From NCBI RefSeq assembly GCF_004010195.1, contig NC_057757.1, forward strand, positions 6,852,142 to 6,895,119: DNA of 42,978 nucleotides, given 5' to 3'. The notes below the pieces were generated by a model. The model saw nothing but the letters and a program-made list of their open reading frames with translations, did no database searches and was not told the DNA's origin. Source of the DNA: Chiloscyllium plagiosum. Taxonomy: Eukaryota. The translations under genes and the position numbers were made by a program. Shown in pieces: positions 71 through 26,727 of the stretch. Position 1 is the stretch's first letter; the number at the start of each line of letters is the position of its first letter.

Positions 71-969
71 TTAATGTAGTAACCATCTTGATCCTTACTC
101 GGGGAAATTGTGGTCTGTCTAAATGTGTAACCCATTACCTGGTGGCCATGGCAACCGCAGATCTATTGGTCATTATCATTGATCTGATATTGCGTCAGAT
201 ACCTATCGTTTATTGGGAAGGATTCAGCATTTTCCGAATAATTCCCTTGTGCAATATCCATGCCGTTCTGCTTTATGCAGCCACAGACAGTTCTGTCTGG
301 TTCACTGTAACTTTCACCTTTGATCGATTTGTGGCCATTTCTTGCCAGAAGCTGAAATCTAAATATTGCACTGAAAAGACAGCAACTGTTGTCATAGGAA
401 CAGTGACAGGGTTGTGCTTTGTGAAAAACATTTTCTGGTATTTTCTGTACACACGTGAATATTAGCTTTCAAACAGTTCTTGGTTTTGCCGTGTGGCTCT
501 CAGAGTATCCCATTCACTGGTCTGGGCCATCGTTGAATTAATCCATTACATACTAACACCATTCGTTCCATTTATTCTGATTCTTCTCCTCAATGCAATG
601 ACGGTCAGGCACATATTAATGGCCAGCAGAGCACGCAAGAGACTTCAGTATCGGAGCAACATTGAGAGTCAAAGTGACCCAGAGATGGGCAGTCGAAGGA
701 AATCCATGGTTCTGCTGTTTGTGATATCGGGGAACTTTGTTCTGCTGTGGGTGGTGTTCATGGTTTGTTCTATACTGAGACGATTAGATTACTTGGAATA
801 TTCTGTTTCTGTACCAGCGTTCGTTCGAGAAATTGGCATCATGCTCCAGCTTTTGAGCTGCTGCACGAATACTTTTATTTACACTGTAACCCAGAGGAGG
901 TTTAGAGAGGAGTTGAGAAATGGAGTGAATTATTCCCTTTCATGGATGGTCAAACTATGTCGATGCTGA
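71..969 (+). pseudogene. GPR139/GPR142-like GPCR copy A, exon 2 (exon 1 lies upstream of the window), with one premature stop
   Basis: Acceptor ttctttgcag ends at 70, followed by phase-1 (V)NVVTILILTRGNCGLSKCVTHYLVAMATADLL...FTFDRFVAI...SCCTNTFIY. ORFs 88-465 and 493-969 are in the same frame, separated by TAG at 463-465 where the paralog at 24002-24897 has Trp (YWLSNS). Confidence 0.88.
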
Positions 970-1264
970 GAATTCGCGTTTCACAACCATATCTTGTGCT
1001 TTTGTGTCATGCTCTGCTCATTATTTATATTTTGGAAATCGTTCAATCTGAAATACTAATTGATGTTACATCCCTGGGCTGGGTGGTCACTGTTTATGTT
1101 CATTATTATTGCCAGGGACAGGTATTAGCTCTCCATAGCTCTGAGTTTGTCACATACTTCCCCAGCAACACCAACCCTTCTACACAGCCCACTTGTCGGC
1201 ATAAGGCTCAAATGAGCTCTCCATGGGGGAATGAGCCCTTGTTGAGATCCTTGCTCAATAAAGA

Positions 1265-1737
1265 GCCACTGCTGGTGTTCCTGGCCTGGTCAGGTAGGCC
1301 ATAAACAGGGGCTATGGAGGTGTCATTATGGTCAATCGTCTGCCCCACTTCCACGATTACATCTGGGTTCTGGTGTCCCTGGAGAGGGAGCACGCAATGT
1401 CTATGAATATCCTTTGGGTTTTCAGAGAGAGGTAGGCACTGCAGGGTTTGGAGTGCTTTATTTCCCCCTCCAATTCTATTTTGATTTAATCCCTGCCCTC
1501 CCTCTCAATTTTTTTTGATCGCATTAGCATTGCCCTTTGTTGAGAAAGGCACTGCTTGCGACTGGCCATTCGGGTTTTTTCTTATCTTCTTGCTGATAGA
1601 AAATGAATAAAGGTTTCTGCGCTCGTTGCTCTCCATTGTGTCCTACACCTGCACACACACACACACGACATGGGTGCAGAGGAAAAATAAGCTGTTTGGC
1701 GGTAGCGTGGGAGGAAAGAAAAAAAGAGAAAAAAAGG
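1265..1737 (+). mobile_element. Tx1/L1-clade LINE 3' fragment (ORF2 C-terminus, 3' UTR and A-rich tail)
   Basis: 1340-1489 reads LPHFHDYIWVLVSLEREHAMSMNILWVFRER*ALQGLECFISPSNSILI*, resembling Tx1-type ORF2 ends. It is followed by AATAAA, (CA)n and an A-rich end. Confidence 0.6.
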
Positions 1738-1924
1738 GAAAATTCCCATTGCTTTGCAATGTCCTATTATTTGGCATGTGTTTATCCCAACATTGTTGGC
1801 AACTTTCTTTCATCACTGAGCCATGTCCTTATTGAATGGTGGAGCAGACCTGATGGGTTAGATCATCCGACATAGACCAGGATGGGAACAGGCCCTTCGG
1901 CCCACAATGCTTTCGGAAACGGGT

Positions 1925-2077
1925 GACATGGGGGGAGCATGGTCGGCGGGGCTAGGGGTGAGTGACGTCAGCGGGGGCAGAGGTGGCACATTCGGTGGCA
2001 AACATGGGGGCAGAAGTGACCTTCTGGGTGGTGTCGGCAGAAGCTGTGCCTCTAACCGGAGCAAGTTGTTCAGATGG
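1925..2077 (+). promoter_or_regulatory. Putative ZNF622 promoter and first exon ending in ATG-G
   Basis: GC-rich patch with a GGCGGG box, perfect CRE TGACGTCA (1963-1970), degenerate YY1/ETS-like AACATGGGGGCAGAAGTGAC (2001-2020), and ATGG|GTGAGT donor (2074-2083). Splicing to the acceptor at 6083 gives in-frame ATG GCA ATG TCT. Confidence 0.55.
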
Positions 2078-2589
2078 GTGAGTCAGAATTCCCCATTTCC
2101 AACTCCAAATTGGGGGAAGTTTTCAGAGCGTTTTGGGTTGTCGCGGAAGCTTCAATTTGTTTGGCAGTTCCATCGCAGTCTACTGCAAAAGGACATCTAC
2201 AAGGTCCGAATGAACAAATGCAACAGCAGCCTTCCTTTTGGAAGGTCCAAGCCAATATGATTTGTCACAGATACGGACTCATTTACCCCAGTCATCTCAA
2301 GGATTTATGGTCTTTGTTTCTCATTAAACATGAAAAATGTGGTGCAGTTCTTTGTATTGTTATATCCTGCCATTCCCCCAACCTAGCAGAGATATTTTTA
2401 TTATCCCCATCCGTCCATCATCTGGTTGGTGAAACAATATTTACAACATTAGCGCCATTATTGCTATTGTGGTGTAAGGGACCTCTCTTACCATAGCTCC
2501 CGTTTGGTTGTTATTAGGACCTGTTATGATACAGGGATATGATGTTGAATGGCCGGTGTTGGGTTGGGGTGGATATATGGATAGGCAGC

Positions 2590-2712
2590 TGAAGGGCTTT
2601 TGTCTGAAACCTTGATTCTCCTGCTCCTCGGATACTGCCTGGCCCACTGTGCTTTTCCAGCACCACACTCTCGAATCTGATCTCCAGCATCTGCAGTCCA
2701 CACGTTCTCCTA
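2590..2712 (+). mobile_element. Penelope-like element terminal fragment with decayed hammerhead remnant
   Basis: gaagggcttttgtctgaaac...ccagcatctgcagtccacac...cctag matches the same terminus at 4110-4239, 8705-8920 and 38362-38460. Confidence 0.65.
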
Positions 2713-3296
2713 GCTGAACCAAATCAGCCTCACTATCACTGAAATTGCAATATACTGAAATATTGCCCGAACCAGACATTAAGATTAACAGATCTTTGCC
2801 AAGTTTGACTCATTGTTAATTTTTGTTAAATAAAGTAACTTTAACAAAACAAAAATGAGAAATGACTCACATTCATGCGCCCTGGCAGACAGACACAGTT
2901 GAGGGATAAAATAAAAAGAAAATAAAGCAACTGTTTATTGAACTGGAAAATTATGATTCTGCTGATAAGTGCCTGACTTTCATGAAATCCTTGGGCAATG
3001 GATTGTTCATTTCCTTTTAGAACTGTTTATCTTGCTTGAAATTTGAAGTCATCAATTAATGCAAACAGTTTCCGCAGATGTGTGGGAATAACTTATTTCT
3101 TGCTGTTCTTTTATCAGAATATTCGACAATTTGATGACTGGATAGAAAACTAGAGAAAGTAAAACTAAGCCACTGAAAGTTTCCCAAAATCCTCTGCTTC
3201 CAGCTAAAATCCAATCAGGAACTATTCTTTTCTTTTTGTAGTTACTGTTCTGTCTGATTAGCTGGCCAACACCAATCCTCCCTTTATTCATGAATT

Positions 3297-3982
3297 CATA
3301 AGACCATGAGACATAGGAGCAGAAATTAGATCATTCAGCCCATTGAGTCTGCTCTACCACACAATCATGTTTAAGACGTTTCTCAACCTCAGTCTCTCAT
3401 TTCTCTCTGGAACCCTTGATCCCCTTTATACTCAAAAACTTATCTATCTTAGCGTTAAATATACTCAATAACGTGGTCTCCACAGCCTTGTGTACCAGTG
3501 AATCCCATCGATTCCCCACTCTCTGGCTGAAGAAGTTTCTCCTTACCTCCGTTCAAAAAGCTCTTCCCTATACTCCAAAGCTATGCCCTACTGTCCTGTC
3601 TCTCCAACCAGTAGAAACATATTCCCAACATCTAGTCTGTCCAAACCATTCAGTATTCTGGAAGTTTCAGTTAGATCTCGTGTCATCGTTCTAAACCCAT
3701 TGAATATAGACCCAGAGACCTCAAAACTTCCTCACATGTTGAGCTATTCGTTCCTGGAACCATTCTCATGAATCCCCCTGAACACGCTCCAGGGCCAATA
3801 CATCCTTCCTGAGATGTGGGTCACAAAACTGCACACAATACTCCAAATATGGCCAGACCAGAGCCTAATAGAACCTCAGAAGAAATCCCTCCTCTCAATA
3901 TGGATGCCATAATTGCATTTGCTTTCCTAACTACTGACTTAACCTGAGAGGTTGCCTTGAAGGAATCCTAGATTAGAACTCC
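3297..3982 (-). mobile_element. CR1 LINE 3' fragment
   Basis: Short-repeat tail cataagaccatgagacatagg, 3' UTR, and degraded ORF2 end on the minus strand (ctctggtctggccatatttggagtattgtgtgcagttttgtg, LVxPYLEYCVQF-type). Confidence 0.8.
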
Positions 3983-3984
3983 TC

Positions 3985-4239
3985 TCCGACCTATCACCTT
4001 CATCCCCACCTCCACCCACCTATTGCACTCTTAGCTACCTTCTCCCCAACCCCAACCCTCTCCCCCCAACCATTTATCTCTCCACCCCGGAGGCTCCCAG
4101 CCTCATTCCTGATTAAGGGCTTTTGTCCGAAACTTCAATTTTCCTGTGCCTCAGATGCTGCCTGACCTGCTGTGCGTTTCCAGCACCACTCTAATCTTGA
4201 CTCTGATCTCTAGCATCTGCAGTCTTCACTTTCACCTAG
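3985..4239 (+). mobile_element. Penelope-like element 3' end with degenerate hammerhead
   Basis: C-rich tract, then cattc-CTGATTA-A-GGGC-TTTT-GTCC-GAAAC and the shared terminus. Homologous to the 3' end of the GIY-YIG-bearing element at 38362-39190. Confidence 0.75.
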
Positions 4240-4302
4240 ATTCAGGAGGGAATTCAAGTGTGTGAGATCTAGCCAGCTATAAATATAGCCAGCAATGTTA
4301 AC

Positions 4303-5945
4303 ACCATAAGACCATAAGAAATAGGAATGGAAGTAAGGCCATTCGGTCCATCAAGTCGACTCCATCATTCAATCATGGCTGATGGGCATTTCAAAGCCAC
4401 TTACCCTCACTCTCCCCATATCCCTTAATTCCTTGTGAGATTACGAATTTATCAATCCCTGCCTTGAAGCCATTTAACGTCCCGGCTCCACTGCACTCTG
4501 TGACAATGAATTGCACAGGCCCACCACTCTGGCTGTAGAAATGTCTCCTCATTTCCATTCTAAATTGACCCCCTCTAATTCTAAGCCTGTGCCCATGAGT
4601 ACCAGTGCCACAGTCTGACGGAAACATGTTCCCAACGTCCACCCTTTCTAAGCCATGCAATATCTTGTCAGTTTTTATTAAATCTTCCCTCAAACTTCTA
4701 AACTCTAACGAATACAATCCAGGATCCTCAATTGTTCATCATATGTTCGGCCTACCATTCCAGGGATCATCCGTGTGAATCTCTGCTGGACACGCTCCAA
4801 TGCCAGTATGTCCTTCCTGAGGTGTGGGGCCCAAAACTGGATACAGTATTCTAAATGTGGCCTAACCAGAGCTTTATAAAGTCTCAGTAGCACATCACTG
4901 CTTTTACATTCCAACCCTCTTGAGATAAATGACCATGACTCAACCTGCAAGTCAACCTTTAGGGAATCCTGTACTCGCACACCCAGATCCATTTGTACTT
5001 TGGCTTCATGAATTTTCTCACTGTTCATAAAATAGTCCATGCGTGTATTTTTTTTTCCAAAGTGCAAGACTTCATATTTGCTCACATTGAATTTCATCAG
5101 CCATGTTCTAGACCACTCTCCTAAACTGTCTAAATCTTTCTGCAGCCTCCCCACCTCCTCAGTACTACCTGCCTGTCCACCTAACTTCGTATCATCGGTG
5201 AACTTCACCAGAATGCCCCCAGTCCCTTCATCCAGATCATTTATATATAAAGTGAACAGCTGCGGCCCCAACACTGAACTCTGCGGAACCCCACCTGTCA
5301 CCGGTTGCCATTCTGAAAAAGAACCTTTTATCCGAACTCTCTGCCTTCTGTCAGACAGCCAACCCCCAATCCATTCACATAGCTCACCTCGAACACCATG
5401 GGCCCTCACCTTACTCAGCAGCCTCCGTGAGGCACCTTATCAAAGGCTGTTTGGAAGTCTAGATAGATAACATCCACTCGCTTTCCCTGGTCTAACCTAC
5501 TTGTTACCTCTTCAAAGAATTCTAACAGGTTTGTCAGGCATGACCTCCCCTGACTAAATCCATGCTTACTTGTTCCAATCCGACCCTGCACTTCCAAGAA
5601 TTTAGAAATCTCATCCTTAATGATGGATTCTAGAATTTTACCTGCAACCAAGGTTAGGCTAATCAGCCTATAATTTTCCATCTTTTGTCTTGATCCTTTC
5701 TTGAACAAAGGGGTTACAACAGCAATTTTCCAATCATCTGGGACTTTCACTGACTCCAGTGATGTTTGAAAGATCACAACCAACACCTCCACTATTTCCT
5801 CAGCTACCTCCCTCAGAACTCTAGGATGTAGCACATCTGGGCCAGAAAATGTATTAATTTTTAGACCTTTTAACTTTTCAAGTACTTTCTCCTTTGTAAT
5901 GGCCACCATACTCAACTCTGCCCCTTGGCTCTCCTTAATTGTCGA
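4303..5945 (-). mobile_element. CR1 LINE, 5'-truncated, RT domain to 3' tail
   Basis: Minus-strand ORFs 5415-5915, 4705-5409 and 4391-4717 contain NYRLISLT, QGRSCLTNLLEFFE, YLDFQTAFDKVPH, GVPQSSVLGP, FTDDTKL and LVRPHLEYC. Tail ccataagaccataag. Confidence 0.95.
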
Positions 5946-6084
5946 GTGAAGCAGATCTTGCTAACAGCAAAGATATGGCGCTTGGACTCCAGATTTGATT
6001 TTTAATGGACAATGACAATAATGTTTGTTCTTTGTGGACCTGATTTATTTTTCTGTGTTCTATATTTTATTTTTGTTTTAAGCA

Positions 6085-6694
6085 ATGTCTTCCTACACCT
6101 GCATCACGTGTCATGTGGCTTTTGGTGATGCTGAGATTCAGAGGTCACACTACAAAACAGATTGGCACAGATATAACCTGAAGCGTAAAGTCGCAGAAAT
6201 GCCTCCAGTGACAGCTGAAAACTTCCAAGAACGTGTATTGGCCCTGAGATCAGCTGTAGAAGAGAAGAAAAAGGGGACTGCCACAGACTGCACATCTTGT
6301 GGTAAAAGATTCGCCACCTTCAATGCCTATGAAAATCATTTAAAATCCAAGAAACACCAGGATGCAGAAAAGAAGTTCGCGAGCATTGCAAATAAACAGC
6401 TGGAAAGGCTGAATGTGAAAAATTTGGAGATGGGGATAAGCGAGGATGGAATGGACAAAGATACCGTGAATATAGCCATTCAGCAGGCGGTAAAAGCTCA
6501 GCTGGCTCCCTCCACAAGGAAATGGACTGTTGTCCCAGTAACTGAAGACGCTTTGTCACAAGTCACAGTTAGCAGCCAACAAAACAAGAAGCCTGACAAA
6601 CCACCTCGGTTACTCTGGTTCGGACAGCAAGCTGCAAAATTGGACCAGCTCGAGTCATTTGAGGAGGAAGTGACGATGGAGGATGAAGATGATG
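6085..6694 (+). CDS. ZNF622: ZNF622 main N-terminal coding exon (two C2H2 zinc fingers, acidic tract), open frame
   Basis: MSSYTCITCHVAFGDAEIQRSHYKTDWHRYNLKRKVAEMPPVTAENFQERV...CTSCGKRFATFNAYENHLKSKKH. Acceptor AG at 6081-6082, phase-1 donor GT at 6695. Confidence 0.92.
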
Positions 6695-6923
6695 GTAAAT
6701 AATGGCAAATCAGCATCTTGTTTCTGGTTCAGTTTTAACAAGTGTCTAGAGAATATGTCCCCTGCACTAAAGTTTCCTCCTTTCACTTTTTAAGACATAT
6801 TCTAACTCCAAAGCACAAGGTAACTCATTTGGCAAATCACCAGTGCTTATTTCAATAGAGTGGAGAGTGCATCCTAACAAGCAGCATGTGATGACTGTAC
6901 GCTCAGACTACCTCAGACCATAA

Positions 6924-7215
6924 TTAGATTAGATTACTTACAGTGTGGAAACAGGCCCTTCAGGCCCAACAAGTCCACACCGCCCTGCCGAAACGCAACC
7001 CACCCATACCCCTTACCTAACACTAGGGGCAATTTAGCATGGTCAATTCACCTAACCTGCACATCTTTGGACTGTGGGAGGAAACCGGAGCAAACCCACG
7101 CAAACACGGGGAGAACGTGCAAACTCCACTTAGTCAGTCGCCTGAGCCGGGAATTGAACCCAGGTCTCTGGCGCTGTGAGGCAGCAGTGCTAACCACTGT
7201 GCCACCGTGCCGCCC
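6924..7215 (-). mobile_element. tRNA-derived SINE (HE1/V-SINE-like)
   Basis: Minus strand begins gggcggcacggtggcacagtggttagcactgctgcctcacagcgccagagacctgggttcaattccc (A/B boxes) and ends in a CR1-like 3' end with (atcta)n tail. Confidence 0.9.
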
Positions 7216-7411
7216 AGTTTGTGCATTAAACACATTTTGGTAATGTTGTAGTAATGCCTTACTGACAAAAGGTAATATTTGTGAACATCTGATACTTCTG
7301 CAGCCTCAATTATTTAGAATTTCTTTTATAAGAGTTGCGACTTGTATTTCCTGTAACAAAGGTGTTCTCAGTAATAAATCAATTCACTTCTGGGTATGTT
7401 AATTTTAATTT

Positions 7412-7710
7412 CAATGATTTATTGTCATGTGTGCTGAAGTACAGTGAAAAGCTTTGTTTATGAGCAGTACAGGATGTACAGATCAGAAAGGTTTAGACTG
7501 AGGTTTGCCGGTTGCATTGCACAGGGTGAGCACTAGGCAAGAGCGACGTTAGCAAGGCTAGCATTATTTGAAGTTAGAGACTTCATTCATCAGTCTAATA
7601 ACATCCAGGAAGAAGCTGTTCCTGAACCTGCTGGTGCGTGTGTTCAAGCTTCTGTATCTTCTGACTGACAGAAGAGGTTGTAGGAGATTTGCACTGTACT
7701 CCTGGTCATA
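7412..7710 (-). mobile_element. Rex1/Babar-like LINE 3' fragment
   Basis: ggaagaagctgttcctgaacctgctggtgcgtgtgttcaagcttctgtatc and tttattgtcat resemble Rex1-type 3' ends. Confidence 0.55.
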
Positions 7711-7897
7711 TCAAGGACCTTGTTAAATTGAGCTGCATTTGTTGACTGGGAAAATGTTGCCAGCTCTGAATATATTCACACTTACACATTTGTACTGAGA
7801 TTTATATCAAATAGAACACTGTTATATATATTACAAATTTAAAAGTGCTTTTGGTTTCAACATGCCTTTGGTTTCGACTTTGCACTTTTTCTGCTAG

Positions 7898-8125
7898 GTG
7901 AATGGGAGGATGTGGATTCTATCTGTGATGAGGAGGAACATTTTAAAAACGAGAGCCGAGCTGAAGTCTCTCCATCTGGCAGTATTCAAGTAACAAACTG
8001 CTTATTTTGTTCACATCACTCTCGATCTCTATTTAAAAATATTGATCATATGACAAAGTTGCACGTTTTTTTTATTCCTGACATTGAATATTTAGTGGAG
8101 CTAAAGGGTTTGATGAAGTACATGG
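7898..8125 (+). CDS. ZNF622: ZNF622 coding exon (third zinc finger)
   Basis: ctgctag|GT GAA TGG GAG GAT...NCLFCSHHSRSLFKNIDHMTKLHVFFIPDIEYLVELKGLMKYM G|gtaagt; 228 nt, phase 1 at both ends. Confidence 0.9.
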
Positions 8126-8704
8126 GTAAGTAAGAATGAAATGTACATTTTAACAATGTTCTTAATGGCAAATTAATCTACCTAATTTTTAATAAGACAT
8201 AAAGAGTCAGATTAAATCAGGTCTCTTCGGAAAATTGTCTGATCTAAGTGTGACAATTAAAACCGGTCATGTCAACTGAAAGGGTGGTTGTCATGCTGCA
8301 TTGAATCTTCATATACAGAGATCCAGGCCTAGTGGAACAGGGGTCTTTTGATCTTTTTACCTCTAACAGTGTAACTAACATCCCTTTCCCATCTGTGTTG
8401 CTATGGAGAACTGCCAAGCAGAGCGAACATAAAAGAACACTCAACAAACTCATGGACTAAACGTTGGCATTTTCTACAAGTGCAGTATTAATATTTTACA
8501 TATAAACTGAGAATTTGGTGAAAATTAATCTGGTGTCAACGGAACTTGAGTGAGCAATGGGACTTTCCTTAATCTGATGGTTTCACATTCATGTCACTGA
8601 GATGAGTGAAGACTCAGAAATTTAAGTCGATCATCAGTTGCTCATCATACTCAGAGAACTATGACTCATTTTAACGCATAGCAAACTGACCGTCAAAAGA
8701 CAAT

Positions 8705-8920: not shown

Positions 8921-9092
8921 CAAAAGACAATGCTTAAATGAATTTACAACTCAGAAATGTTCAATTGTAGAGAATGTATTTTTAATTGTTTGGTTTCAAA
9001 ACTTCAGCTTGAGATGCTAAAAGGTTTTGGCTGAGGTTTATTTAGCATTATATAAGTAGCTGCTTGTGATGTTTGCAATTTTACTTTTGCAG

Positions 9093-9254
9093 GAGAAAAG
9101 GTTGGTCTGGGAAACGTTTGCCTGTGGTGCAATGAGAAAGGGCGGTCCTTTTACTCGACTGAAGCTGTCCAAGCTCATATGGTTGACAGCAGCCATTGTA
9201 AACGCTTCACAGATGGAGAGCTACTCTTGAATTTGTAGACTTCTATGAATTTAG
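9093..9254 (+). pseudogene. ZNF622: ZNF622 exon (fourth zinc finger) with frameshift
   Basis: tttgcag|(G)EKVGLGNVCLWCNEKGRSFYSTEAVQAHMVDSSHCKRFTDG, then GA-GCT ACT CTT GAA TTT GTA GAC TTC TAT GAA TTT AG|gt. One base is missing near 9219, giving TAG at 9236-9238. Confidence 0.88.
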
Positions 9255-10099: not shown

Positions 10100-12088
10100 C
10101 CACTTTTAGCATCACTTCTGCTTGTGCTGCCACTTTCAGGAAGCTATGGACTTGCACCCCAAGATGTCTCTGTATATAGAACGTACAACAGTATAGTACC
10201 AGAACAGGCCATTCAGCCCATGATATAATGCAGATCATGACTATGGACATGTAGAAGGGATTAATTGAATTTAGCCAGTTAAATTAATCCCTTCTATCTG
10301 TCCATAGTCAATATCCTTCTATTCCTCGCTTAATCATGTGTTTTTCTAAAGGTACCTTAAACACCCTTATTCAATCTGCTTCCACTACTATCCCTGACAG
10401 CGTGTTCCAGGCACCTACCACTCTGTTTTAAAGAAACGTCTTGCCCCCTCACAGCTCCTTTGAAATTTTCCCCCTTACCTGATTATATGCCCTGTAGTCT
10501 TAGATGTTTCAGCGCTAGGAAAAGATTGACTGTCAACATGTTCTATGCCTCTCATAACTTTATGAACTTCTATCAGGTCTCCCCTCTGCCTCCATTGCTC
10601 CAGAGAAAGCAACCCTAAGTTTGTCTCGCCTCTCTTTATAGCTCATACTCTCTAATCCAGGCAGCAGCCTGGCAAAACCTTTCTGCACCCTCTCAAAAGC
10701 CTCCACATCCTTCCTGTAGTGTGGTGACCAGAACTGAACACAATACTCAAAGTTTGGCTAAACCCAAATTGATAGAGCTACAATTTCATTTCCTTACTCT
10801 TGTATTTGATGCCACAGCCAATAAAATGAAGCATGTATATGCCTTCTCTATCATCCTATCTACTAATGTGACTATTTTCAGGGAGCTATAGACTAGGACC
10901 CCAAGATCCCTCTGTACATCATTGCTGTTAAGGGTCCTGCCATTATACGTTCCCTTAACATCTGATCACTCAGTGTAACACCTTGTGCTTGCCTGGATTA
11001 AAGTCCATCTGCCATTTCTCCGACCATGTCTGGAACTAATCTATATCCCACTGTATCTTTTGACAACCTACAGTATTCACAACCCCCCCAATCTTTGTTT
11101 CATCTGCAAACTAACAAATCTATGTTTTCATCTGAGTCACTTATATAAATCGCAAACAGCAGAGGTCCCATTACGGATCCCTGCGGAACGCCACTGGTCA
11201 CGGACCTCCAGCCTGAGAAACACCCTTCTCCTACTACCCTCTGCCTTCTATGGGCAAGCCAATTCTGAATCCCCACGCAGTGGATCCAAGCACGCATCTT
11301 AATCATCTCTGTGAGCCCACCATGAGGTACTTTGTCAAAGTCCATGTAAACAATATATACCGCTCTACCCTTATCAGTCACCCTGTCATCTCCTCAAAAA
11401 AATCAATCAAATTAGTAAGATATGAACTGCCCCACACAAAGCCATGTTGAGCGGTCCTAATTAAGCCATGCCTTTCCAAATGCATGTAAATCCTATCCCA
11501 TAGAATCCTCTGCAATAACTTCCTGGTCACTGGTCTATAATTTCCTGAATGATCCCTATTTCCCTTCTTGAACAGAGGAACAACATTAGCTCAGGTCAGT
11601 CCTCAGGTTAGAGCAGATACAAAGATCTTTGTATCTTTGGCAGGGCTTCTAAAAGTCCTGCCATTTGCTGTATGCTTTCCTCCTGCATTTGACCTCCCAA
11701 AATCTACGACATCCCATTGGTCCAGATTAAACTCCATCTACCATTGCTTTACCCACTTTCTAACTGGCCTACATCCTGATGTATCATTTGATAACTTTCC
11801 TTACTATCCACAACTCTACCAATTTTCATTGCAAACTTTCTGATTAGACCACCACATTTTTTTCACCTAAATCCTCTGACTTTTTACAAACAGATCCCAG
11901 CACTGATCCTTCCAGAATACCACTGGTCACAGACCTCCAGTCAGAAAAGCATTGTCCACGGCTGCCATTTGTCTTCTGTGACTAAACCAGCTTTTCCCAA
12001 CTTGCCAACTCACCATGGATTCCATGTGACTTAATCTTCTGGACCGACCTATCATGAGGGACCTTGTCAAACGCTTTGGTCAAGTCAA
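10100..12088 (-). mobile_element. Degraded CR1 LINE fragments (at least two pieces)
   Basis: Minus-strand DKVPHG...SGVPQGSVMGPLLF (11100-11381), a CR1 3' end near 10177, and a second RT piece at 11640-12088. Confidence 0.85.
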
Positions 12089-12094
12089 TGTGGG

Positions 12095-13310
12095 CAATAT
12101 AATGACATCAAATTTGGGAGACAAGACTTATATACTTAATGCTGAAAAAGTGCAGCAGGTCAGGCAGCATCCAAGAAGCAGGAGAATCGACGTTTCGGGC
12201 ATGAGCCCTTCTTTAGGAATCCAGCATCTGCAGTACTCACTTCCTCCTTATGTACTTAATGGTAAGGTTCTGTGGAGTGTTGCTGAACAAAGAGTCCTTG
12301 AAGTGCAGGCTCATAGCTCCTTGAAAGTGAAGTCACATGTAGATAGGATAGTGAAGAAGGCACTTGGTATGCTTTCCTTTCTTCATCAGAGCATTGAGTA
12401 TAGGAGTTGGAAGTCATGTTGAAGCTGTACAGGATATTGGTTAGGCTACTTTTGGAATATTGCATTCAATTCTGCTCTCTCTGCTACAAGAAGAATATTG
12501 TGAAACTTGAAAGTGGCCAGAAAAGATTTACAAGGATATTGCCAGGTTTGAAGTATTTGAGCTATAGGGAGAGGCTACATTGGCTACTTTCTCCGGAACA
12601 TCAGAAGCTGAGGCGTGACCTTATAGAGATTTATAAAATCATGCGGGGCATCGCTAGATTAAGTAGACATGGTCCTATTCCTGGGATGGAGGTATTCCAA
12701 AACTAGAGGACATAGGTTTAAGGTTAGAGGGGAATGGTTTAAAAGGGACATGAGGGGCAACTTTTTCATACAGGTGGTTGCACGTGTATGGAATGAAGTG
12801 CCAGAGGAAGTGGTGGAGGCTGGTACAATTACAACATTTAAAAGGCATATGGATGGGTATATGAACCGGAAGTGTTTGGAGGGATATGGGCCAAATGCTG
12901 GCAAATTGGACTAGGTTACTGGCTTTTATTGGTAGAGGAATTGAGTTCCGGAGTACTGAGATCATATTGCAGTTGTATAAGACTCTGGTGCGGCCGCATC
13001 TGGAGTATTGTGTGCAGTTTTGGTCGCCATACTATAGGAAGGATGGGGAGGCACTGGAACGGGTGCAGAGGAGGATTACCAGGATGTTGCCTGGTATGGT
13101 AGAAAGATCGTATGAGGAAAAGCTGAGGCACTTGGGGAGGTGGGCTTGGGTCGGCGCAACATCGAGGGCCGAAGGGCCTGTACTGCGCTGTATTCTTCTA
13201 TGTTCTATGTTCTATGTTCTATGTTCTATGTTTATCTTGGACATCTGATCGGCATGGACGATTTGGACTAAGAGATCTGTTTCCATGTTGTGTATCTCTA
13301 TGACTCTAAT
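12095..13310 (+). mobile_element. CR1 LINE 3' portion containing a nested second CR1 (about 12919-13230) and a Penelope insert
   Basis: LVRLLLEYCIQF and TRGHRFKVRG. The nested copy has LVRPHLEYCVQFWSP, an internal deletion near 13138 and a (ttctatg)n tail at 13196-13230. Confidence 0.88.
12142..12246. mobile_element. 105-bp Penelope-derived insertion with 15-bp TSD
   Basis: cttatatacttaatg (12127-12141) and cttatgtacttaatg (12247-12261) flank a minus-strand hammerhead-bearing segment (gacgtttcgggcatgagcccttctttagg) joined to a plus-strand terminus (ccagcatctgcagtactcacttt). Confidence 0.8.
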
Positions 13311-14980: not shown

Positions 14981-15497
14981 ATCCAGTGCGCGGGGAGTGG
15001 GAGACCCTGGTTCAGGAGACACTGCCTTACAGGAAACTCCTGTCAGAAGGGACACAACTCCTTGAGAACACCTGCCAGGAAGAAGAAGGACAGAACAGGA
15101 ACCGGAGAAAGGAATGCCAGCGATTTCAAGACCAGAGACCAATTCGACCTTCCTGGAAATACCTGACAAACGTATGGTGGGAGATGTGGCTCTAGGATTG
15201 GGATCATCAGCTTCTCAGAGCTCCACAGAACCCGTGACCAGTGACACGTAAATTCCAAGGGGGTCAATCACACTTGTCAGTGAGTGATTACCAATGATGA
15301 CGGCACCAAGGAGATATAATCATTAAACTGGAGCCACTATTGCAATCTAACATGATCCCTTATACAAACCATATCCCCAGCACATTCATTCTTAATTAAT
15401 ACATTTCAATACTTGTACTTTGTAACATTTTGTGGAAAAGATAGACTCTGGTGGGGCCAGGTCATAAATCAGGTGGGATATGGGATACAAGCAAGAC

Positions 15498-16385
15498 CTA
15501 ATGGTGGGAAACACTCGGTATCTCTGATTTTCTCATGAAATGAGACATTGCTTTCAGTGGATATCGCACCCCATTGATGAGCTGTTCTCGAAATTCCCTC
15601 TGGCTCACTGCATAAATACATGTGTTTGGGCAGCAGCTCCAAAGGAGGAGCATGGGACTGGGTTTGGTCAAGGATAGACATGGGGTCACGGAAACCATGT
15701 GAAGAATAATGGTGTGTGACATGAATTAGTAAAACGTAGATGACATAGGAAACCCATAGATGACAGACCCTCTCCAGTTCTCCATCTCAGGACCATTTTG
15801 ATTTGGATGATTCCGTCTGCTCTGTAATCTCTGATGGATCTTACTGGATGCTAAAATGGGACGGACTGTCAGTACATTAAGCTGCAATATCAGAAATATT
15901 GGCAGCAGTGGTGTGAAACAGCGGTGAAACCAAGTATATGCTATCCAAGCATTTACATCATAAAAATCCCACTTTCTATTGCAACCTCCTGGTACATTGT
16001 CCTTTCTAGTTGTGAATTCATGAGCATAGTACCAAGGTATGTTCTTTAAACAGAACAAGGGACAGATCGATCCGATGATGGCAATTGTTGTTCTTTCACT
16101 GCAGTATTTAGTCTTGAACTCCTGGCAACAAATGGCAACAAACCGATCAAAAGTGAAACCAACTATGAGCCAGACTGAAATATCGGTGAAAGCATCATTT
16201 AGAATGGATTGGATGGAGCAGACTGCAGTAATGATCAGAAAGTTAGTTGGGATAAAAGAGGCTTTAATTCGAGTCAGGATCCTGTAATTGAGGTTGAGCA
16301 AGTAGATCAACCACTGCCATGGCCATCAAATACCAAGTGAGAGACTTAGAGCTGTGGGCGTGGGTCACAATCGTCAACAAGTTGG
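15498..16385 (-). pseudogene. GPR139/GPR142-like GPCR copy B, exon 2, multiply frameshifted
   Basis: Acceptor ttttgcag|, then (A)NLLTIV...YLMAMAVVDLL / TDISVWLIVGFTFDRFVAICCQEFKTKYC...TPLLPIFLIL / SCCPNTCIYAVSQREFREQLINGVRYP, broken across several ORFs. Confidence 0.88.
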
Positions 16386-18622: not shown

Positions 18623-18693
18623 CTGGGGATTCCAACAGCTGCTCGAATTATATAGTAAATGAGTACTGTCTGCACAATGGCTGGCCATTTCAC
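18623..18693 (-). pseudogene. Probable exon 1 remnant of GPCR copy B
   Basis: GTG KWPAIVQTVLIYYIIRAAVGIP aligns with IQRIYYPVLAAVGVP of copy C exon 1. The start appears mutated to GTG and the GT donor is lost (ccccag gaggt). Confidence 0.7.
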
Positions 18694-19140
18694 AAAAGGA
18701 CACTCTGTGAAAAGCACTCCCAATTTGTCTAAGTAAGTGGCCTTTGACAAGAGGCTCCAACTGATTCGGGGTGATGGGGAACGCAGAGTGAGCCTTCCTT
18801 TCTAACTGAGAGAAAGCTCCTGTGGGATCACAGCACAGGTGGAGCAGTGATATTCCTTCTGGCTTTCCATTCTCCATTATGTATGAGCCCCTCGTGAAAG
18901 CAAATCCAACTGAGACAGCAGTGTTGCAACAGATTAGGATTACAATTTGTCACACTTATTTCTCATGTCTGCCACTGCACCAATTGAATGGTTGATATGC
19001 TTTTCACAAAATAAGATTCAAACATTTATAAAATGTATTTGTGTGAGGACAAGCTTGTGATTGGATTGGCACAAAACACATTCAGAACAACAAGATTTTT
19101 TGAGATTTGTGGGGAAAATAACACTTGAACTGCCAGGGCG

Positions 19141-19465
19141 CTAAGGCTCCTCAGACAGCACCTTTCAAACACACAATACTCATGAAGGACAAGGGTAGCA
19201 GATGCACGGGAACACCACCACCCCCTCCCCCACTTCAAGTTCCCCTCCAAGCCACTCACCATCCTGACTTGGAAATATGTTACTCTTGTGTCAATGTCAT
19301 TGGGTCAAAATCCTGGAATTCCCTCCTTATTGGTATGGTGTGTGCCCCTAAGTCACACGGACTATAGCAGGTTCAGTAAGGCAGCTCACTCCCACCTTCT
19401 CAAGGGACAACTAGAGATGGACAATAAATGCTGACCCAGCCATTGACAGCTGTGTGCTATGAATT
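19141..19465 (+). mobile_element. CR1/L2-group LINE 3' end
   Basis: caagttcccctccaagccactcaccatcctgacttggaaat...gggtcaaaatcctggaattccctcc...aataaatgctg. Confidence 0.65.
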
Positions 19466-19736
19466 AAACAATCAAAGGTGGTAAATTGTGTTTATTGAAA
19501 TGAAATTAGAATAAATTCCTTTTCGGGAAAGTAAAGATGTCATCAGAAGTTACAGATTACAACAAGAAGAAAGACTACACCTCTCTTTTCCAAAGGTTCA
19601 GCAGCAGTAACAGGGACTTGTAAATCAAACAGAGAGGTCATGGAGCAGAACATCTGTGGAAATCGACATTCCTCAGGATTCTGTGGGCTCCATAAAGGAT
19701 TCAAGTTACTTTACAGCATTTTAAAACACGGGAAAC

Positions 19737-19781
19737 TCTCACTGATGACGTTACCTAGTCATGGTGATGAAACGTCTGAAA
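19737..19781 (+). ncRNA. Minimal type I hammerhead ribozyme within a Penelope-like fragment (about 19715-19858)
   Basis: tca-CTGATGA-c-gttacc-tagtcat-ggtgat-GAAAC-GTC-tga: intact core, stem II, palindromic ACGT stem III, GUC cleavage triplet, stem I tca/tga. Confidence 0.7.
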
Positions 19782-20019
19782 ACAAACCTTCCAGCTCAAT
19801 GAACTAACTTACATACTTATCATCAACCTGAGCTTCAAATCTTCTCAAAAATCACTAACAATTATTATCCATTCTCCCAAGTTTCACTTTTATACTTTCA
19901 ATGATATCCGTGAAGTGCCGGCCGAGGGAGAAAACACATTTCAGGGAGGGGTTCAGGACATTCAAATACTTGGGCCAGCACCTCTAATCAGTTAGATTAC
20001 ACTCGTGGTATCTCACAAT

Positions 20020-22120
20020 CATTTTCCCTCTGTTGTTTAACGTTGCTGTTATCACGACCAAACCAGACTGTATTGATATAAAAAGAGCAAAACCTGGAGA
20101 AATTGGATCTTGAGAGAGATACAATCTTGTATCAAGAGGGGAAAAAGGAGAGTTATGGCAGATACTTAGAGAACAAGACAGCAGAAGCCCTGAAGGAGCA
20201 TAGACCTGCTATAGTCCATGTGACTTAGGGGCACACACAATACCAATAAGGAGGGAATTCCAGGATTTTGACCCAACGACATTGACACAAGAATAACATA
20301 TTTCCTAGTCAGGATGGTGAGTGGCTTGGAGGGGAACTTGAAGTTAGGAGAGTATAAGGGAGTCATGAAAGGATACTAGCAGGAAAAATAAAGGAAAATT
20401 CTAAGACATTTTGCAAGTACATTCAGTATAAAAGGGTAGGGATAGAAAGAGTTGGGTCTGCTGACGACCATGCTGGGACTGTGTGCATAGAGCCAGATGA
20501 TGTGAGCAGGATTCTAAATGAAGAATTTGCATCTGTGTTCACAAGTGAGAATAATGATGGGCCAATCAAGAAGAAGGATTGAAAATATTCGAAGAAATTA
20601 GCATCAAGAGACAGGAGGTTGTGAGTAGTCTTGCTCTCTTAAATATAGATAAATCTGTAGAACAGAATGGAATGTATTGCAGGTTATTGAGAGAGGTAAG
20701 GGAAGAAATAGTAGGGGGACTGGCAATAATTTTCAGATCCCCTCTGGCCACAGGATAGATACCAGATGTCTAGAGGGCAATCAATGTCGGATTGTTATTC
20801 AAGGAGGGAGCAAAGGATAAACCAGGAAACTACAGGCCAGTCAGTCCAACCTCAGTGATAAGGAAACTAATCTAAGTGATTCTAAGGAACAGAATTAATC
20901 TGCATTTGGAGAGGCAGGGATTAATCAAAAAGAATCAGTGTGGTTCTATTAAGGGGAATTCATCTCTGGCAAACTGGGCGTAATATTTCAGAGGGAACAA
21001 GCTGTGCACTTGAAGGCAATGCTTGGACTTCAGCAAGGCTTTTGTTAAGATCCTGCGTGGGAGACTGATAGCTAAGGTAAGAAAGCAGGGGATCCAAGGA
21101 AATTTGACAAATGTGATCCATAATTTACTGAGTGGCAGGGAGAAGTGGGTGATAATTGAGGGATGTTTTTGTGAGCGCCTCTTGGGAAGTCTGTGTCCAA
21201 TAGGATCCAGCAGGGGGCAGTGTTGGGGCCCTTTGCTGTTTATGATTGATATGAATGATTGAGACTGGAATGGAGGAGGGTTGGTCAGTAAGTTCTCGGA
21301 GGATACAAAAAATTTTGGAGTGGTAAACAGTGAAAATGCTAGCCTTAGATTACAGGAGGATATAGTTGGGCTGGTCAGATGGGCTGATCAGTGGCAGATG
21401 GCATTCAATCCGGATGAGGGGAAGGTGATGCACTTGTGCAGAACAAGCAAGGCAAGGGGATACACGATGAATGATAGGAACCTGGGAATCATCAAGGATC
21501 AGCGGGACAATGGTGTGCATGTATTCCAGTTTTCTTAAGGTATCAGGACAGGGGATAAATTAGTTAAGGAGGCATTTGGGACACTTGCCTTTATGAGTTG
21601 AGGCAAAGAGATTAAGAGCAAGCAGGTAATTCTGGAATTGTGTACAACGGTGGGTGGACTACATCTAGCGTATTATGTGCAGTTCTGCAATCCACATTAC
21701 AGGAAGGGGGTGTGATAACACTGGAGACGGTGCAGAAGAGATTTCCCTGGATTTTGCCTAGGCTGGAAAGTTTCAGTTACAAAGACAGATTGGACAGTTT
21801 CCATAGAACTGAGCAGATTGAGAGGAGCCATGATTGAGATGTGTAAAATCATGAAGGGCGTAGACAGGGTGGACAGGAAGGAAGCTTTCCCCGTGTAGGA
21901 GGAATTAATAACCCATACAGAATTATGATAAGGGGCAGAAGGTTGATGTGAGAAAAAGCATTTTCACTCAGAGGGTGAAAGAGAACCTGGGCTCACTGTT
22001 TGTAAGGGTGGGAGAGGTAGGCATTCACATAACATTGCAGGAATATTTAAATGTGCATTTACGGTGCCAAGGCTTACAAGGCTATGGGTCAGGTCCTGGA
22101 AAATGGAGTTAGAATTGATG
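20020..22120 (+). mobile_element. Degraded CR1 LINE (ORF2 to 3' end)
   Basis: ccaggaaactacaggccagtcagtc (PGNYRPVS), DFSKAF, SKFSEDTK, WADQWQMAFN; many stops. Confidence 0.85.
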
Positions 22121-22142
22121 ATAGACTAAAGCATTTTCCCAA

Positions 22143-22915
22143 CTACAGAAGATAATTTAGGATGCTTTCTATGGTGGACCTATATACGTTTATAGGAGTC
22201 CATGTGGATGTACTGAATTTCCTTAGCCTCCTGAGGAAGTGGAGATGTTGTTGAGCTTTCTTGAGCGTTGCGTTGACGTGATTGGACCAGGACAGATTGT
22301 TGGCGATCGTCACTCCCAGGAACGTGGCGCTGTCGACCATCTCCTCCTCAGCCCCACTGATCCAGACAGGGGCGTGCTCTCCACTCTGCTTCCTGAACTC
22401 AATGACCAGCTCTTTCATTTTGCTGAGATTGATGGGGAGATTGGTGTCTTTACACCATGCCAGTAAGCACTCAATCTCTTTCCTGCCTTGTATGTTGTCA
22501 CTTGTTTCAAATCCGGCCTACACCGGTGGTGTTATCAGCAAACTTGTAAATGGCATTGGGTTGGAATTTGGCCGCACAGTGAGTGCATAAGGAGGATGTA
22601 GGAGGGCTGAGTGCACAGCCTTGTGGGCCACTGGGATTGAGGATTACGGAGGAGGTGGTGTTGTTGCTTATTCTTACTGATTGTGGTCTATGGGTCAGGA
22701 AGTTGTGGAGTGAGTTACAGAGAGTGGGGCTTGGGGGTGGGGGAGAGGTGAAGAGAGAATGGGTGGGTGGCAGGGGCAGATGCCAAAACATTGGTCTCTG
22801 AGTATGAAGATGAATTTGTTTGGAATTATGGTGTTGAAGGTGGAACTGTACTCGGAGTTTGACACAGGTATCCTTGTTAACCAGATGTTCCATGGCTGAG
22901 TGTAGGATCACTAAC
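22143..22915 (-). mobile_element. Rex1/Babar-like LINE RT fragment
   Basis: GPQGCALSP, KFADNTT, KELVIEFRK, FLGVTIANNLSWS, KKAQQHLHFLRRLRKF, YRSTIESIL. Confidence 0.85.
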
Positions 22916-23186
22916 TGCAAATGTAAAGTGTTGCGACAGTGTAAACATCAGGACTTCAATCAGTTATTGCAGATGAAAAGAAGCAACAATAACTCTGTCA
23001 GGAATAAACAGGGAAGGGACAAGGACAAGCTGTTACACAGGAATTGAAAGCAATTCTCCATACCTGGGAAAAGAAGGAGTTGAAGTTCCATAAACAAACC
23101 TGTTTAACACCCGTTTGATAAGTGGTTGCTATATGCCACAAGGACAATGATTGCGTGGCAGAGGAGTTTAAGGAGCTGCTCACAGG

Positions 23187-23597
23187 AAAGCTGTGTCTTC
23201 AAACAGACGAGTCAATGCCAAATGGAACAGGGAGTAAGGAAGCTCCTGTTAGCGGACAAGCTGCTGACTTACTGGCTCCACAGGAATAGTCAGTATTGTG
23301 AATGAAAGGATCTAAAGGATTATCAATTTTTTTAATCACAAACTTGAAGGACTGAACATTGTATAAGAATTCAACTCCAGGATTCGTCCGGGGCAGAACT
23401 CTGGAAAACTGCACGAGGTTCGACCCTGTACATCCAGAGACAGACACTGTGGTTAAAATCCGAGCTCAACTCCACCAAAAATAGATAAGTTGGGTTGGGA
23501 GGCTTAAGTTGCTGACTTGAGAGGCCTTAATTTGGCTGCTACATGCAATAAGGTTTAAATAATTGTTTCAGTATTCGATTGTCTGTGAGATTTCTTA
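23187..23597 (+). repeat. Unclassified ~410-bp LTR-like repeat, copy 1
   Basis: Colinear blocks shared with 25491-25907: aaagctgtgt, tcacaaactt, ttaaatwattgtttcagta, gtgaratttctta. Confidence 0.6.
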
Positions 23598-25490
23598 ATA
23601 TGTCTCCTACTTGAAGGCAGCTGATGGTTATTTACAAACAATAGTGCATTCGACTACAGAGAGAAGGCCATAGAGTGACACTGAGTGTGTTGAACTCTCT
23701 CAGAGCTAGCACAGACAGAACAGCTGCATGGCCCCTGTCTGTGCTGTAATATTTCCATAATTCTGTAAGGAACACCCAAAGTGAGGACAGACAGTGTGAA
23801 CCGAGGCTGTGTTGCTGTGATTTTTTCACAACCACAGCTTACTCCCACACTACCCCTGAGCTGAAAGCTGGTGTTGCATTGTATATAGACACTCAAAGGT
23901 CTTCAGCAAGGATCAAGCGCATATAAAGCCTGGGATCTCAGATCAGAACCTTAATCCTGAGAAAATATATATTTAGTGTTCCAAACATTGGCAAATAAAC
24001 ATCATCGAATTACTTCGACCAACTTTGTGAAGGGATACATTATTCCATTCTTCATCTCTTCTCTGAATTTCCTCTGGGTAACTGCATAAATAAAGGTGTT
24101 TGTGCAGCAGCTCAGGAGCTGGAGCATGAAGCCAATCTCTCTTACAAATGTTGGCAGAGGAACTGGGTATCCCAAGTAATCAAATCGTTTCAGTATGGAA
24201 TAAGCAATGAACACCACCCATAACGTGATGAAATTACCAGATATAATAAATAACATAATCATGGATTTCCTCCGACTCCCCATCTCTGGGTCACTGACAC
24301 TGTCCCCAGTCGTCTGAGCCCGGAGTCTCCTGCGAGCTCTGTTGGCTAATATAATGTTTCTGACTGTCAATGTGTTTAACAGTAGAATCAAAATAAATGG
24401 AATGAATGGTGTTATGATGTAATGCATTAATTCAACAATAGTCCAGGTAATCGATGCACTTACATTTGGATGTACTCGACAAAACCATGGACTATTAGAA
24501 AGCCAGTATCGGTTGTAGTACATGAAATACCAGAAAATGTTCTTCAAACCACTCAGCACAGTCACTGTTCCTAAAACTACACCCGCTGTTTTCTTGGTAC
24601 AATGTTTACTTCTCAGCTTTTGGCAACATATGGCCACAAACCGATCAAAGGTGAACGTGACCGTGAACCAGACAGAGCAGTCTGTGGCTGCATAAAGCAG
24701 AACAGCGTGGATGTTACACAAGGAGACATAATGTAGGAAAAGAAACTCCTCCCGATATGTGATAGGAATTTGCCGTAGTATCAGATCGAAGATAATGACC
24801 AGTAGATCCGCTGTTGCCATAGCCACCAGCTAATGAGTGACACATTTGGAAAGACCACACTTCCCCTGAACCAGGATCGTTATTGCAATCACATTAACTT
24901 GAAAGAAGAGGACAAATAAATTCATTTATTGCTCAGATATGATGAATAATTTTTTTTTTGCTTTATTTAAAGTGAAATACTGAAACTCATTCTTAATGGG
25001 TTGCCCATGCTTTTGCATCAAACTGAAAACTTATCACAAACTTGATATGATACCTTCCATCCAGAATGGATTTTAAATGTGGTGCTTGTCAGAGAATGGA
25101 AAAACTGCAGTCAAAGGCAATGATAACTATGCAGCCAAAAAAAAATCACAAAGACAGGTGTGACAATGTAAAATTCACACTTTCATAACTGTTCATGGAT
25201 TGAATGAATCAAAAAGAATAACTTGTTACACACGTAGAGAAGTAGTGATGAGCCTCGAATAGACCATTTCTTGGGATGAAAGGGACAATGTGAAACTGTT
25301 GTAATAGCAGTTACAACAACAGGTGCATTGACCATCCCTGGGAAGGAGTTACGGAACCAACACAAACAATCAGTTCCCTCAGTCAGAGGACATGCCACTT
25401 GCTCTGAGATCTGCTCTCTCTCTTTCCAACTGAGCGATTAAGACCTGCCTGCAGCAGTGATGTCCTGAAGGAAAGGGGTTAATTGCAGGC

Positions 25491-25907
25491 AAAGCTGTGT
25501 TTTAAACAGGCAGCTAACCCTGAATGTAACCAGAAACAAAGGAGTTACTTCTGGTGAGAAGGTAAGCTGCAGTCTTGAGGTCTCCAAAAATATACTCAAT
25601 GCTGAGGATCAAAAAAATCTATTGAATCATCAATAATGCCACTTCACAAACTTCAAAGAAAGAAAATTGTTTAAGGATCCAACAGCAGAACAACTCAACT
25701 GCAGACTTTCGAAGACCAACTCTGGACAAAGATCAAACCCTGGATACTTCCAAAGACAGACCACGGTTGATTGAAATCCTGGACAGATCTCACCATTAAT
25801 TGGGTAAGAGCTAAGTTAGATCGTGTGCCTTATACCTGCTTACTTGAGAGATCTTAATAAAGTTTTAAATTATTGTTTCAGTACTTGACTTTATGTGAAA
25901 TTTCTTA
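25491..25907 (+). repeat. Unclassified ~410-bp LTR-like repeat, copy 2 (in the GPCR copy C intron)
   Basis: Diverged direct copy of 23187-23597; contains AATAAA at 25856-25861. Confidence 0.6.
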
Positions 25908-26184
25908 CTAAGTAGCGAAATGAAAGATGAATTGCGCTGAGTTTACCCACAAAACATGGATCGGTGAAAGATGATTAAAACAAATGTTTTTAGCAATTAC
26001 AAAAGGAGTAACTTTGTAAATTGGAGCCACATTTTCTAACAAGAGAGAAATGTTGGAACAGAAATGAGCCATTCAGAGTCTTTGGTGCTTTGATCGATTC
26101 AAGTGGGCCGATGGATACATTTTGTGAATTGCTCATTACTTCTTCTTTAACCCCATTCTCAGAGGAAACCGTTTGAATGGCAAT

Positions 26185-26340
26185 TTTGAAAGAAGCAAAG
26201 AGAAAAACAGCATGAAAGATACTGAGAAAGTAACAAAGAAATGCAGGAAGAAAGAGAAAAGGAGGAAAGATGGAAAGAAAGAAAGAGGGAGAAAGATGGG
26301 GAGAAAGAAAGAAAAAAGAAAGAGAGAAAGAAAGAAGCGA
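26185..26340. repeat. Purine-rich (GAAA-like) low-complexity tract
   Basis: Runs of gaaa/gaga. Confidence 0.8.
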
Positions 26341-26719
26341 CTAATGGACGAATTCTTTTTTTTCACTTCACAAATGATAAGGTGTTTGTGAATTTTTATC
26401 GAAAAACAGAATTCTTATTGATGGCTGGTCATTGCTGAAATGCAAGGAAGAACAAAAAAGTGGAAAAAATAATTAAGATATCACTTATGATTAAATTCCA
26501 ATTTTTGAAACATCATCCTTCACGTGTAACTTACCCGGGACACCAACAGCAGCTAAGACCGGGTAGTAAATCCTCTGTATATCAGTGATCGCCCACAGAA
26601 TCTTCAGCTTTACCATAAAGCTAAGAGACATGGTTTCCCTTTGGAAAGTAATAGTTAGTTTGATGATGCTTGTCAAGGATTAGCCAGTTCTCTCTTTGAG
26701 ACAGTGAGAAAACTTCCAT

Positions 26720-26727
26720 TATTTATA
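26720..26727 (-). promoter_or_regulatory. TATA box of GPCR copy C
   Basis: TATAAATA on the minus strand about 90 nt upstream of the ATG at 26631. Confidence 0.6.

Follow-up and report, generated by a model that had tools for sequence, protein, structure and literature searches.

Broken copies of a chondrichthyan-expanded orphan receptor family related to GPR139 in the genome of Chiloscyllium plagiosum

The stretch of DNA analyzed here, hereafter the window, comprises 42,978 nucleotides of the Chiloscyllium plagiosum genome (RefSeq assembly GCF_004010195.1, contig NC_057757.1, forward-strand positions 6,852,142 to 6,895,119), in which six-frame translation revealed three two-exon class A G-protein-coupled receptor (GPCR) loci, copies A, B and C, each of them broken. 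An earlier description made from the letters alone (the sequence-only reading) had placed copy A on the forward strand and copies B and C on the reverse strand, all disrupted, and six-frame translation, tblastn and Pfam searches agree with it on every one of these points. We are highly confident that the three loci are members of an orphan class A GPCR family that has expanded in chondrichthyans with birth-and-death turnover.

In copy C (reverse strand), exon 1 (26535..26631, 97 nt) runs from the ATG to a GxP motif plus one base, directly after which lies a GT donor, and a phase-1 GT-AG intron separates it from exon 2 (24002..24897). The spliced frame of 330 codons contains one in-frame stop, a premature TAG at 24832-24830 (codon 55) at the junction of intracellular loop 1 (ICL1) and transmembrane helix 2 (TM2), and its nearest relatives are the Stegostoma proteins P0002 and P0003 at 85–86% identity. 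A TATA-like 8-mer on the reverse strand (26720..26727), ~90 nt upstream of the copy C ATG, would be a plausible core promoter; the window holds three matches to it against 1.13 expected, and 16 of 100 shuffles reach three, so that the 8-mer is not above chance and the promoter invoked by the sequence-only reading loses its value as evidence. Copy A is represented by coding exon 2 (71..969, forward strand), which extends from the end of TM1 to the C-terminus, is closest to Stegostoma P0044 (90.2%) and carries a lone premature TAG at 463-465, at the start of extracellular loop 2 (ECL2). Its phase-1 acceptor lies at 70/71 and its exon 1 outside the window, so the GxP motif is out of view. Copy B (reverse strand) is decayed: exon 1 (18624..18723; 33 codons plus one base, ending in GIP), found by tblastn with the Pristiophorus protein P0131 (E 0.008), has TTG where P0131 has its start Met and a GG donor in place of GT, while exon 2 (15490..16385, beginning at 16385 and with an approximate 3' end) is 52–53% identical to P0131, its nearest relative, and shows three frameshifts, near 16302, 15761 and 15660, together with deletions in ICL1 and TM6. 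The proposal of a common phase-1 intron after GxP therefore holds for copy C and, with the donor lost, for copy B, but copy A contributes only a phase-1 acceptor. Pfam 7tm_1 scored above its cut-off in all four GPCR pieces scanned, and tblastn with 271 collected proteins yielded no fourth copy in the window, matching only copies A, B and C and repeat-like pieces.

All three copies read DRF, and the TM7 motif is NTFIY in copies A and C and NTCIY in copy B, as had been noted from the letters. Among 120 close homologues, 114 have F instead of Y3.51 and 119 have T instead of P7.50, and D3.49 (120), R3.50 (119), C3.25 (120), the ECL2 Cys (120), N7.49 (119) and Y7.53 (119) are maintained. A TM7 motif without Pro is also found in human GPR139, and Phe after D/ER also in a separate subfamily with one gene per species that is described below; thus, neither feature marks the expansion. 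The short N-termini attributed to these receptors are likewise seen in the homologues, in which N1.50 falls at residue 34 (median of the 64 of 120 models with a recognizable exon 1).

To survey the family we searched with the long frame of copy C, which gave 1954 clusters (90% identity) at E ≤ 0.001, a number that is not the family size since other GPCRs may lie beyond the best 120 clusters that we examined. These best 120 are all 63–87% identical to copy C, and the 118 that carry a name are all from sharks (47 Heptranchias, 32 Heterodontus, 17 Pristiophorus, 10 Stegostoma and 12 from six other species). Many of them lie together in the genome, with 11 Heptranchias rows on one 29.8-Mb contig, 14 Heterodontus rows on one 19.5-Mb contig and 6 Stegostoma rows on one 15.9-Mb contig, and further rows on other, larger contigs. 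Clustering at 50% identity left 116 clusters at E ≤ 1e-30, and all 21 family representatives looked up by name were chondrichthyan, including skates, rays and Callorhinchus. The suggestion of an elasmobranch repertoire is thus right in that sharks, skates and rays all possess the family, but the family is not limited to elasmobranchs, as Callorhinchus has a member. In a DNA run of a matching organism, 1132 contig pieces align to copy C, 798 of them at 90–95% and concentrated on the TM3 region, which fits many paralogs and is not a copy number; similarly, the summed contig depth in run X1, 42,048 at 24540-24663 against 8.4 at 23672-23795, is a sign of many similar pieces and not a copy number. 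Two metagenome scans for further loci produced 72 and 58 pattern matches and no confirmed relative. The databases label the family proteins automatically as 'probable GPR139'. We note that the ends of many public family models match repeat fragments of the window, and that the exon-1 motif is present in only 64 of 120 models, which indicates that the short first exon is often mispredicted. The cluster counts, the shared contigs and the trees described below together uphold the central proposal that these genes form a large family, kin to GPR139, that is clustered and turns over by birth and death.

The relationships of the window copies to genes of other sharks place their origins at different depths. 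Copies A and C, which had been called close paralogs, are only 69.7% identical, and each has a better match in a Stegostoma gene of its own (90% for A, 86% for C). The Stegostoma origin of these nearest proteins (86–90%) suggests that the host is a carpet shark. In a careful tree of 44 rows, copy A falls with Stegostoma P0044 and Heterodontus P0027 (support 100/99) and copy C with Stegostoma P0002 (100/100), and a sister relationship of A and C was tried and rejected (approximately unbiased test, p-AU 7.6e-6). The two are therefore old paralogs, and their grouping with separate Stegostoma and Heterodontus genes implies a duplication that predates the divergence between horn sharks and carpet sharks. 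The ratio of nonsynonymous to synonymous substitution (dN/dS) between A and C is 0.22 over 295 codons, for this one pair only. Of the 120 homologues, ≥95% agree in 93 conserved columns; copy A departs from the consensus at 3 of these and copy C at 0 (homologue median 1), and these few departures indicate that both stops are recent; either A and C were working genes until recently, or their stops are alleles or errors. Copy B is, as proposed, the more divergent, belonging to a separate subfamily common to sawshark, skate and ray (95/89) and sitting on a long branch (0.78). Judged from these patterns of decay, copy B appears to be an old death and copies A and C appear to have died recently. Being dead, the window copies are of interest solely as signs of turnover; three broken copies of three in a single window do not amount to a genome-wide rate, and the high pseudogene rate inferred from them in the sequence-only reading does not follow.

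Human GPR139 is the best human match of the family and also its nearest solved receptor by sequence (profile score 124 bits, the next receptor scoring 88), and the AlphaFold model of the intact relative P0002 (predicted local distance difference test score, pLDDT, 84.9) has GPR139 as its top fold match in the PDB. Identity to human GPR139 is nevertheless low, at ~27–30% by sequence (~79 identities over 295 query residues) and 22–23% by fold alignment, to be compared with 70% between zebrafish and human GPR139 (PMC7318219, in excerpt). For a shark protein of the family, the score was 126.9 bits with a salamander gene, 121.2 with a coelacanth orphan receptor but 47.5 with human GPR139; an amphioxus protein (100.8), the coelacanth orphan (70.4) and the salamander protein (53.2) all scored higher against human GPR139. 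The ~27–30% identity, the low GPR139 score and the loss of a polar pocket pair (see below) speak against the family being a GPR139 orthologue. The description 'GPR139-like' is apt insofar as GPR139 is the nearest characterized receptor by both sequence and fold, but these receptors are not GPR139; by sequence, the family falls within the GPR139/GPR142/FMRFamide-receptor-like branch without orthology to GPR139.

Within that branch, the careful tree unites 30 chondrichthyan and 2 salamander rows (99/97) and sets the one-per-species subfamily apart (100/99), and a quick tree of 98 rows recovers the same chondrichthyan-salamander join (96) and the same separation (100). Both trees were built without GPR139 and GPR142, and a search with the amphioxus protein gave 10 proteins with no vertebrate GPR139 or GPR142 among them. 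Chondrichthyan monophyly to the exclusion of the salamander gene was not rejected (p-AU 0.26), and the best tree leaves one catshark row outside. A DxEMxxR-type motif in ICL3 occurs in the family and in one of two salamander proteins and is absent from four outgroup proteins. Within the shark family clade, no bony-vertebrate relatives came up other than the salamander genes (P0235, P0272-P0275; three species).

The one-per-species subfamily (P0240, P0241, P0280-P0397), headed by the coelacanth orphan, is also labelled 'GPR139' in the databases. It ranges over sharks, sturgeon, teleosts, amphibians, turtles and squamates; the named rows in the best 120 of 145 include neither mammals nor birds, and two of its models are named as TMEM183A isoforms, which suggests that the gene adjoins TMEM183A. 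Rinne et al. 2019 (PMC6504862, in excerpt) placed an orphan receptor, GPR210, beside GPR139 and GPR142 and distinguished three subtypes of it in coelacanth, gar and fishes; GPR210A, GPR210B and the unnamed third subtype resemble the three non-mammalian lineages encountered here, namely the one-per-species gene, the salamander gene and an anchovy gene. In the excerpted text of that study the word 'shark' has no occurrence and no expansion is reported. The GPR210 Ensembl identifiers of PMC6504862 are absent from the one supplement file searched, and the link to the present lineages is our inference, under which the shark family and the one-per-species orphan may both be GPR210. The coelacanth model P0276 breaks directly after GIP, as would be expected if it had the same TM1 intron.

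To gauge what these receptors might bind we turned to the pocket. In GPR139, F109, W241 and N271 are required for activation by Trp and Phe, and modelling has R244 and N271 binding the polar part of the ligand (PMC5430874, in excerpt). The aromatic cage is retained in the 120 close homologues (Y/F3.33 in 117, H5.42 in 118, W6.48 in 120) and the polar pair is gone, none of the 120 having R6.51 and at most one N7.39. Likewise, across 43 subfamily representatives R/K6.51 is found in 4, N7.39 in 2 and all four key residues in none. Amino-acid sensing of the GPR139/142 type, which the sequence-only reading had entertained, finds no support in these counts. Three salamander proteins have K6.51 together with N7.39, and R6.51 is present in 119 of 120 one-per-species orthologues; this distribution suggests that the expansion was accompanied by loss of the pair. 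We further compared residue entropy at 26 pocket positions, a list that we assume from generic class A numbering, with that at 55 other TM positions of the extracellular half, residues being mapped through the GPR139 alignment. Pocket positions are more variable than the others across the 43 representatives (2.71 against 2.04 bits, p 0.0003) and less variable both within the 120 close A/C-subfamily homologues (0.68 against 1.00, p 0.011) and within 120 one-per-species orthologues (0.73 against 1.16, p 0.041); the intracellular half stays conserved (entropy 1.06). Pockets that are conserved within the A/C subfamily and most variable between subfamilies suggest many different ligands, and to this extent the pocket variation resembles that of a multi-ligand repertoire, lending partial support to the idea of a chemosensory-like family. 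The strongly conserved pocket of the one-per-species receptor makes a single endogenous ligand likely for that gene.

Set beside known systems, the family shares with GPR139 and GPR142 a two-exon structure (PMC7318219, in excerpt), the aromatic residue at 3.33, His 5.42, Trp 6.48 and a TM7 motif without Pro, but R6.51, N7.39 and P6.50 of GPR139 are replaced, Cys 3.25 stands where GPR139 has Asp, and there are many copies instead of one. With the vertebrate olfactory receptors (OR), TAAR, V1R/ORA, V2R/OlfC and T2R it has in common a clustered multigene organization, birth and death, a short N-terminus and a variable pocket; unlike them it matches Pfam 7tm_1 only, has no sequence membership in any of these families and carries a TM1 intron, and its nearest solved receptors in the profile search are GPR139 and peptide receptors. 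Members of its Atlas neighbours carry PF10324 (Srw) at 16–74%, and Pfam gave no Srw match for the window proteins themselves. Nematode Srw receptors are expanded relatives. The FMRFamide/Srw-like expansions of Lymnaea are likewise clustered, lineage-specific and of the same branch (PMC11589774, in excerpt); the shark case differs from such invertebrate expansions in being independent and in a vertebrate lineage.

Between copies A and B lies a ZNF622-like gene of three forward-strand exons (6085-6694, 7898-8125 and 9093-9254; human ZNF622, E 3.9e-66) that is unrelated to the receptors. Its splice phases are correct, but the third exon carries a one-base frameshift; a weak motif scan found no later exons, and the receptor cluster has probably taken in a partial duplicate here. 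Many decayed reverse-transcriptase-like frames, which resemble those of CR1-type long interspersed nuclear elements, and dispersed repeats occupy 4400-5960, 10600-13250, 28000-35700 and 39200-41700, and forward-strand frames with a GIY-YIG-like stretch (38274-39266) may reflect a Penelope-type element. Directly upstream of copy B, an inverted repeat of 141 nt arms (19232-19372 and 20204-20344; 96% complementary, 831 nt apart) possibly represents the ends of a young DNA transposon.

The data establish the two exons with their TM1 intron, the seven-TM fold, the conserved intracellular motifs and TM3/ECL2 cysteine pair, the clusters in several shark orders, and the birth, divergence and death of new copies. 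The most familiar cases of clustering combined with turnover and variable pockets are receptors that detect external chemicals, such as OR, TAAR, V2R and T2R. We hypothesize that intact paralogs would signal through G proteins; that each subfamily would hold its own pocket under purifying selection, with pockets differing between subfamilies such that many ligands are read; and that these ligands, whether peptides or small organics, would come from outside the body or from microbes and be sensed at an epithelium of the nose, mouth, gills, skin or gut. The repertoire would then consist of chemoreceptors in the broad sense, independently built from a neuropeptide-receptor-like ancestor, and similar expansions of the same receptor branch are on record in snails (PMC11589774, in excerpt). 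External or microbial chemical sensing at an epithelium has, in our estimate, at best an even chance, and the overall account, dead copies of an expanded orphan family whose living members may be external chemosensors, is the best explanation we can offer at roughly even confidence. Several observations weigh against it. Pocket diversification points to different ligands and not to external ones; the three entropy sets differ in divergence (49%, 77% and 70% TM identity), their rows are related and the p values consequently generous, and the pocket list rests on generic class A numbering. Isoforms and unplaced duplicates can inflate the cluster counts, which rest on the best 120 of 1954, and the salamander branch is long (1.79) in a tree that excluded GPR139 and GPR142. 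Finally, in the excerpted text of a catshark study, the 50 genes most specific to a brain and olfactory library include no GPCR (PMC11979771), which speaks against an abundant olfactory role, although catshark V2Rs are likewise absent from that list (PMC11979771, same excerpt). Expression data from a single-cell library add little: 21 partial reads in run X21 (~13 million records, ~2% of the run), which could be genomic and of which none is ≥99% alike, so that they derive from paralogs, and no reads in run X22 (~6% read), the two runs representing one sample.

Clustering, turnover and pocket diversity would fit equally well with a fast-evolving set of receptors of immune or barrier cells, leukocytes or mast-like cells that sense microbial or damage peptides in the manner of the mammalian MRGPR and FPR clusters, and the reported absence of MAS1 and receptors related to it from cartilaginous fishes (PMC8455134, in excerpt) leaves room for substitutes. 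The nearest characterized relatives, GPR139 and GPR142, are however neural or enteroendocrine (PMC7318219, in excerpt), and the dN/dS of 0.22 gives no arms-race signal, albeit for one pair; we consider this explanation unlikely. Receptors for endogenous peptides in neuroendocrine or reproductive signaling, multiplied like the FMRFamide-like receptors of euthyneuran snails, would be in keeping with the peptide receptors of this branch (PMC12208981, in excerpt), with Atlas neighbours annotated 'FMRFamide receptor', with the snail precedent and with the TM3 and ECL2 cysteines found in 120 of 120 homologues where human GPR139 has Asp at the TM3 position. Dozens of subfamilies with differing pockets and frequent gene death are ill-matched to a few hormones, though, and the hormone-type pattern in this material belongs to the one-per-species sister subfamily with its R6.51 in 119 of 120, making an endogenous-peptide role unlikely as well.

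Aromatic amino-acid sensing as in GPR139 and GPR142 would account for the cage retained in the A/C subfamily and for GPR139 being the best human match, but the polar pair R244 and N271 that holds the ligand backbone in GPR139 (PMC5430874, in excerpt) is replaced and none of the 43 representatives has all four residues, which leaves this reading very improbable. We likewise see only a slight chance that the family reflects largely neutral proliferation by segmental duplication in repeat-rich regions, with few copies that matter: all three window copies are broken and lie among many repeats and a broken ZNF622 fragment, as such a process would leave them, yet subfamilies are common to shark orders and batoids, dN/dS is 0.22 and the A/C pocket is conserved. 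An external chemosensory role stays our preferred interpretation. More specifically, and only tentatively, the family may constitute a further large chondrichthyan chemoreceptor repertoire, at least the size of the V2R family, derived from a neuropeptide-receptor-like orphan that is low-copy in salamanders and not seen in mammals, and sparsely expressed in olfactory, taste or solitary chemosensory cells.

Radiations of receptor genes have precedent, and the present one is apparently undescribed. Our literature search, which left subscription papers and catshark expression tables largely outside its reach, found no description of the expansion; 12 of 24 files of a whale-shark supplement (PMC8455134) contained no match, and the excerpted text of a zebra-shark preprint (bioRxiv 10.1101/2022.10.17.512540) has no occurrence of 'GPR'. 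The suggestion that the locus is a candidate for an undescribed system thus apparently stands. The family may have been missed because its automatic name makes it look like one known gene and because many models lack the short first exon. Published accounts credit sharks with a small set of olfactory receptors (PMC11979771) and with comparatively few GPCRs (PMC8455134, in excerpt); the at least 47 clusters named for a single species, Heptranchias, among the best 120 contradict that picture. The known catshark repertoire comprises 8 OR, 3 ORA, 3 TAAR, 2 TARL and ~35 V2R genes (PMC11979771). If the family is indeed a further chemoreceptor repertoire, it would revise the view that sharks smell through only a few dozen receptors; whatever its ligands, it offers a concrete test of how chemical sensing works in sharks, given how few receptors they are known to have.

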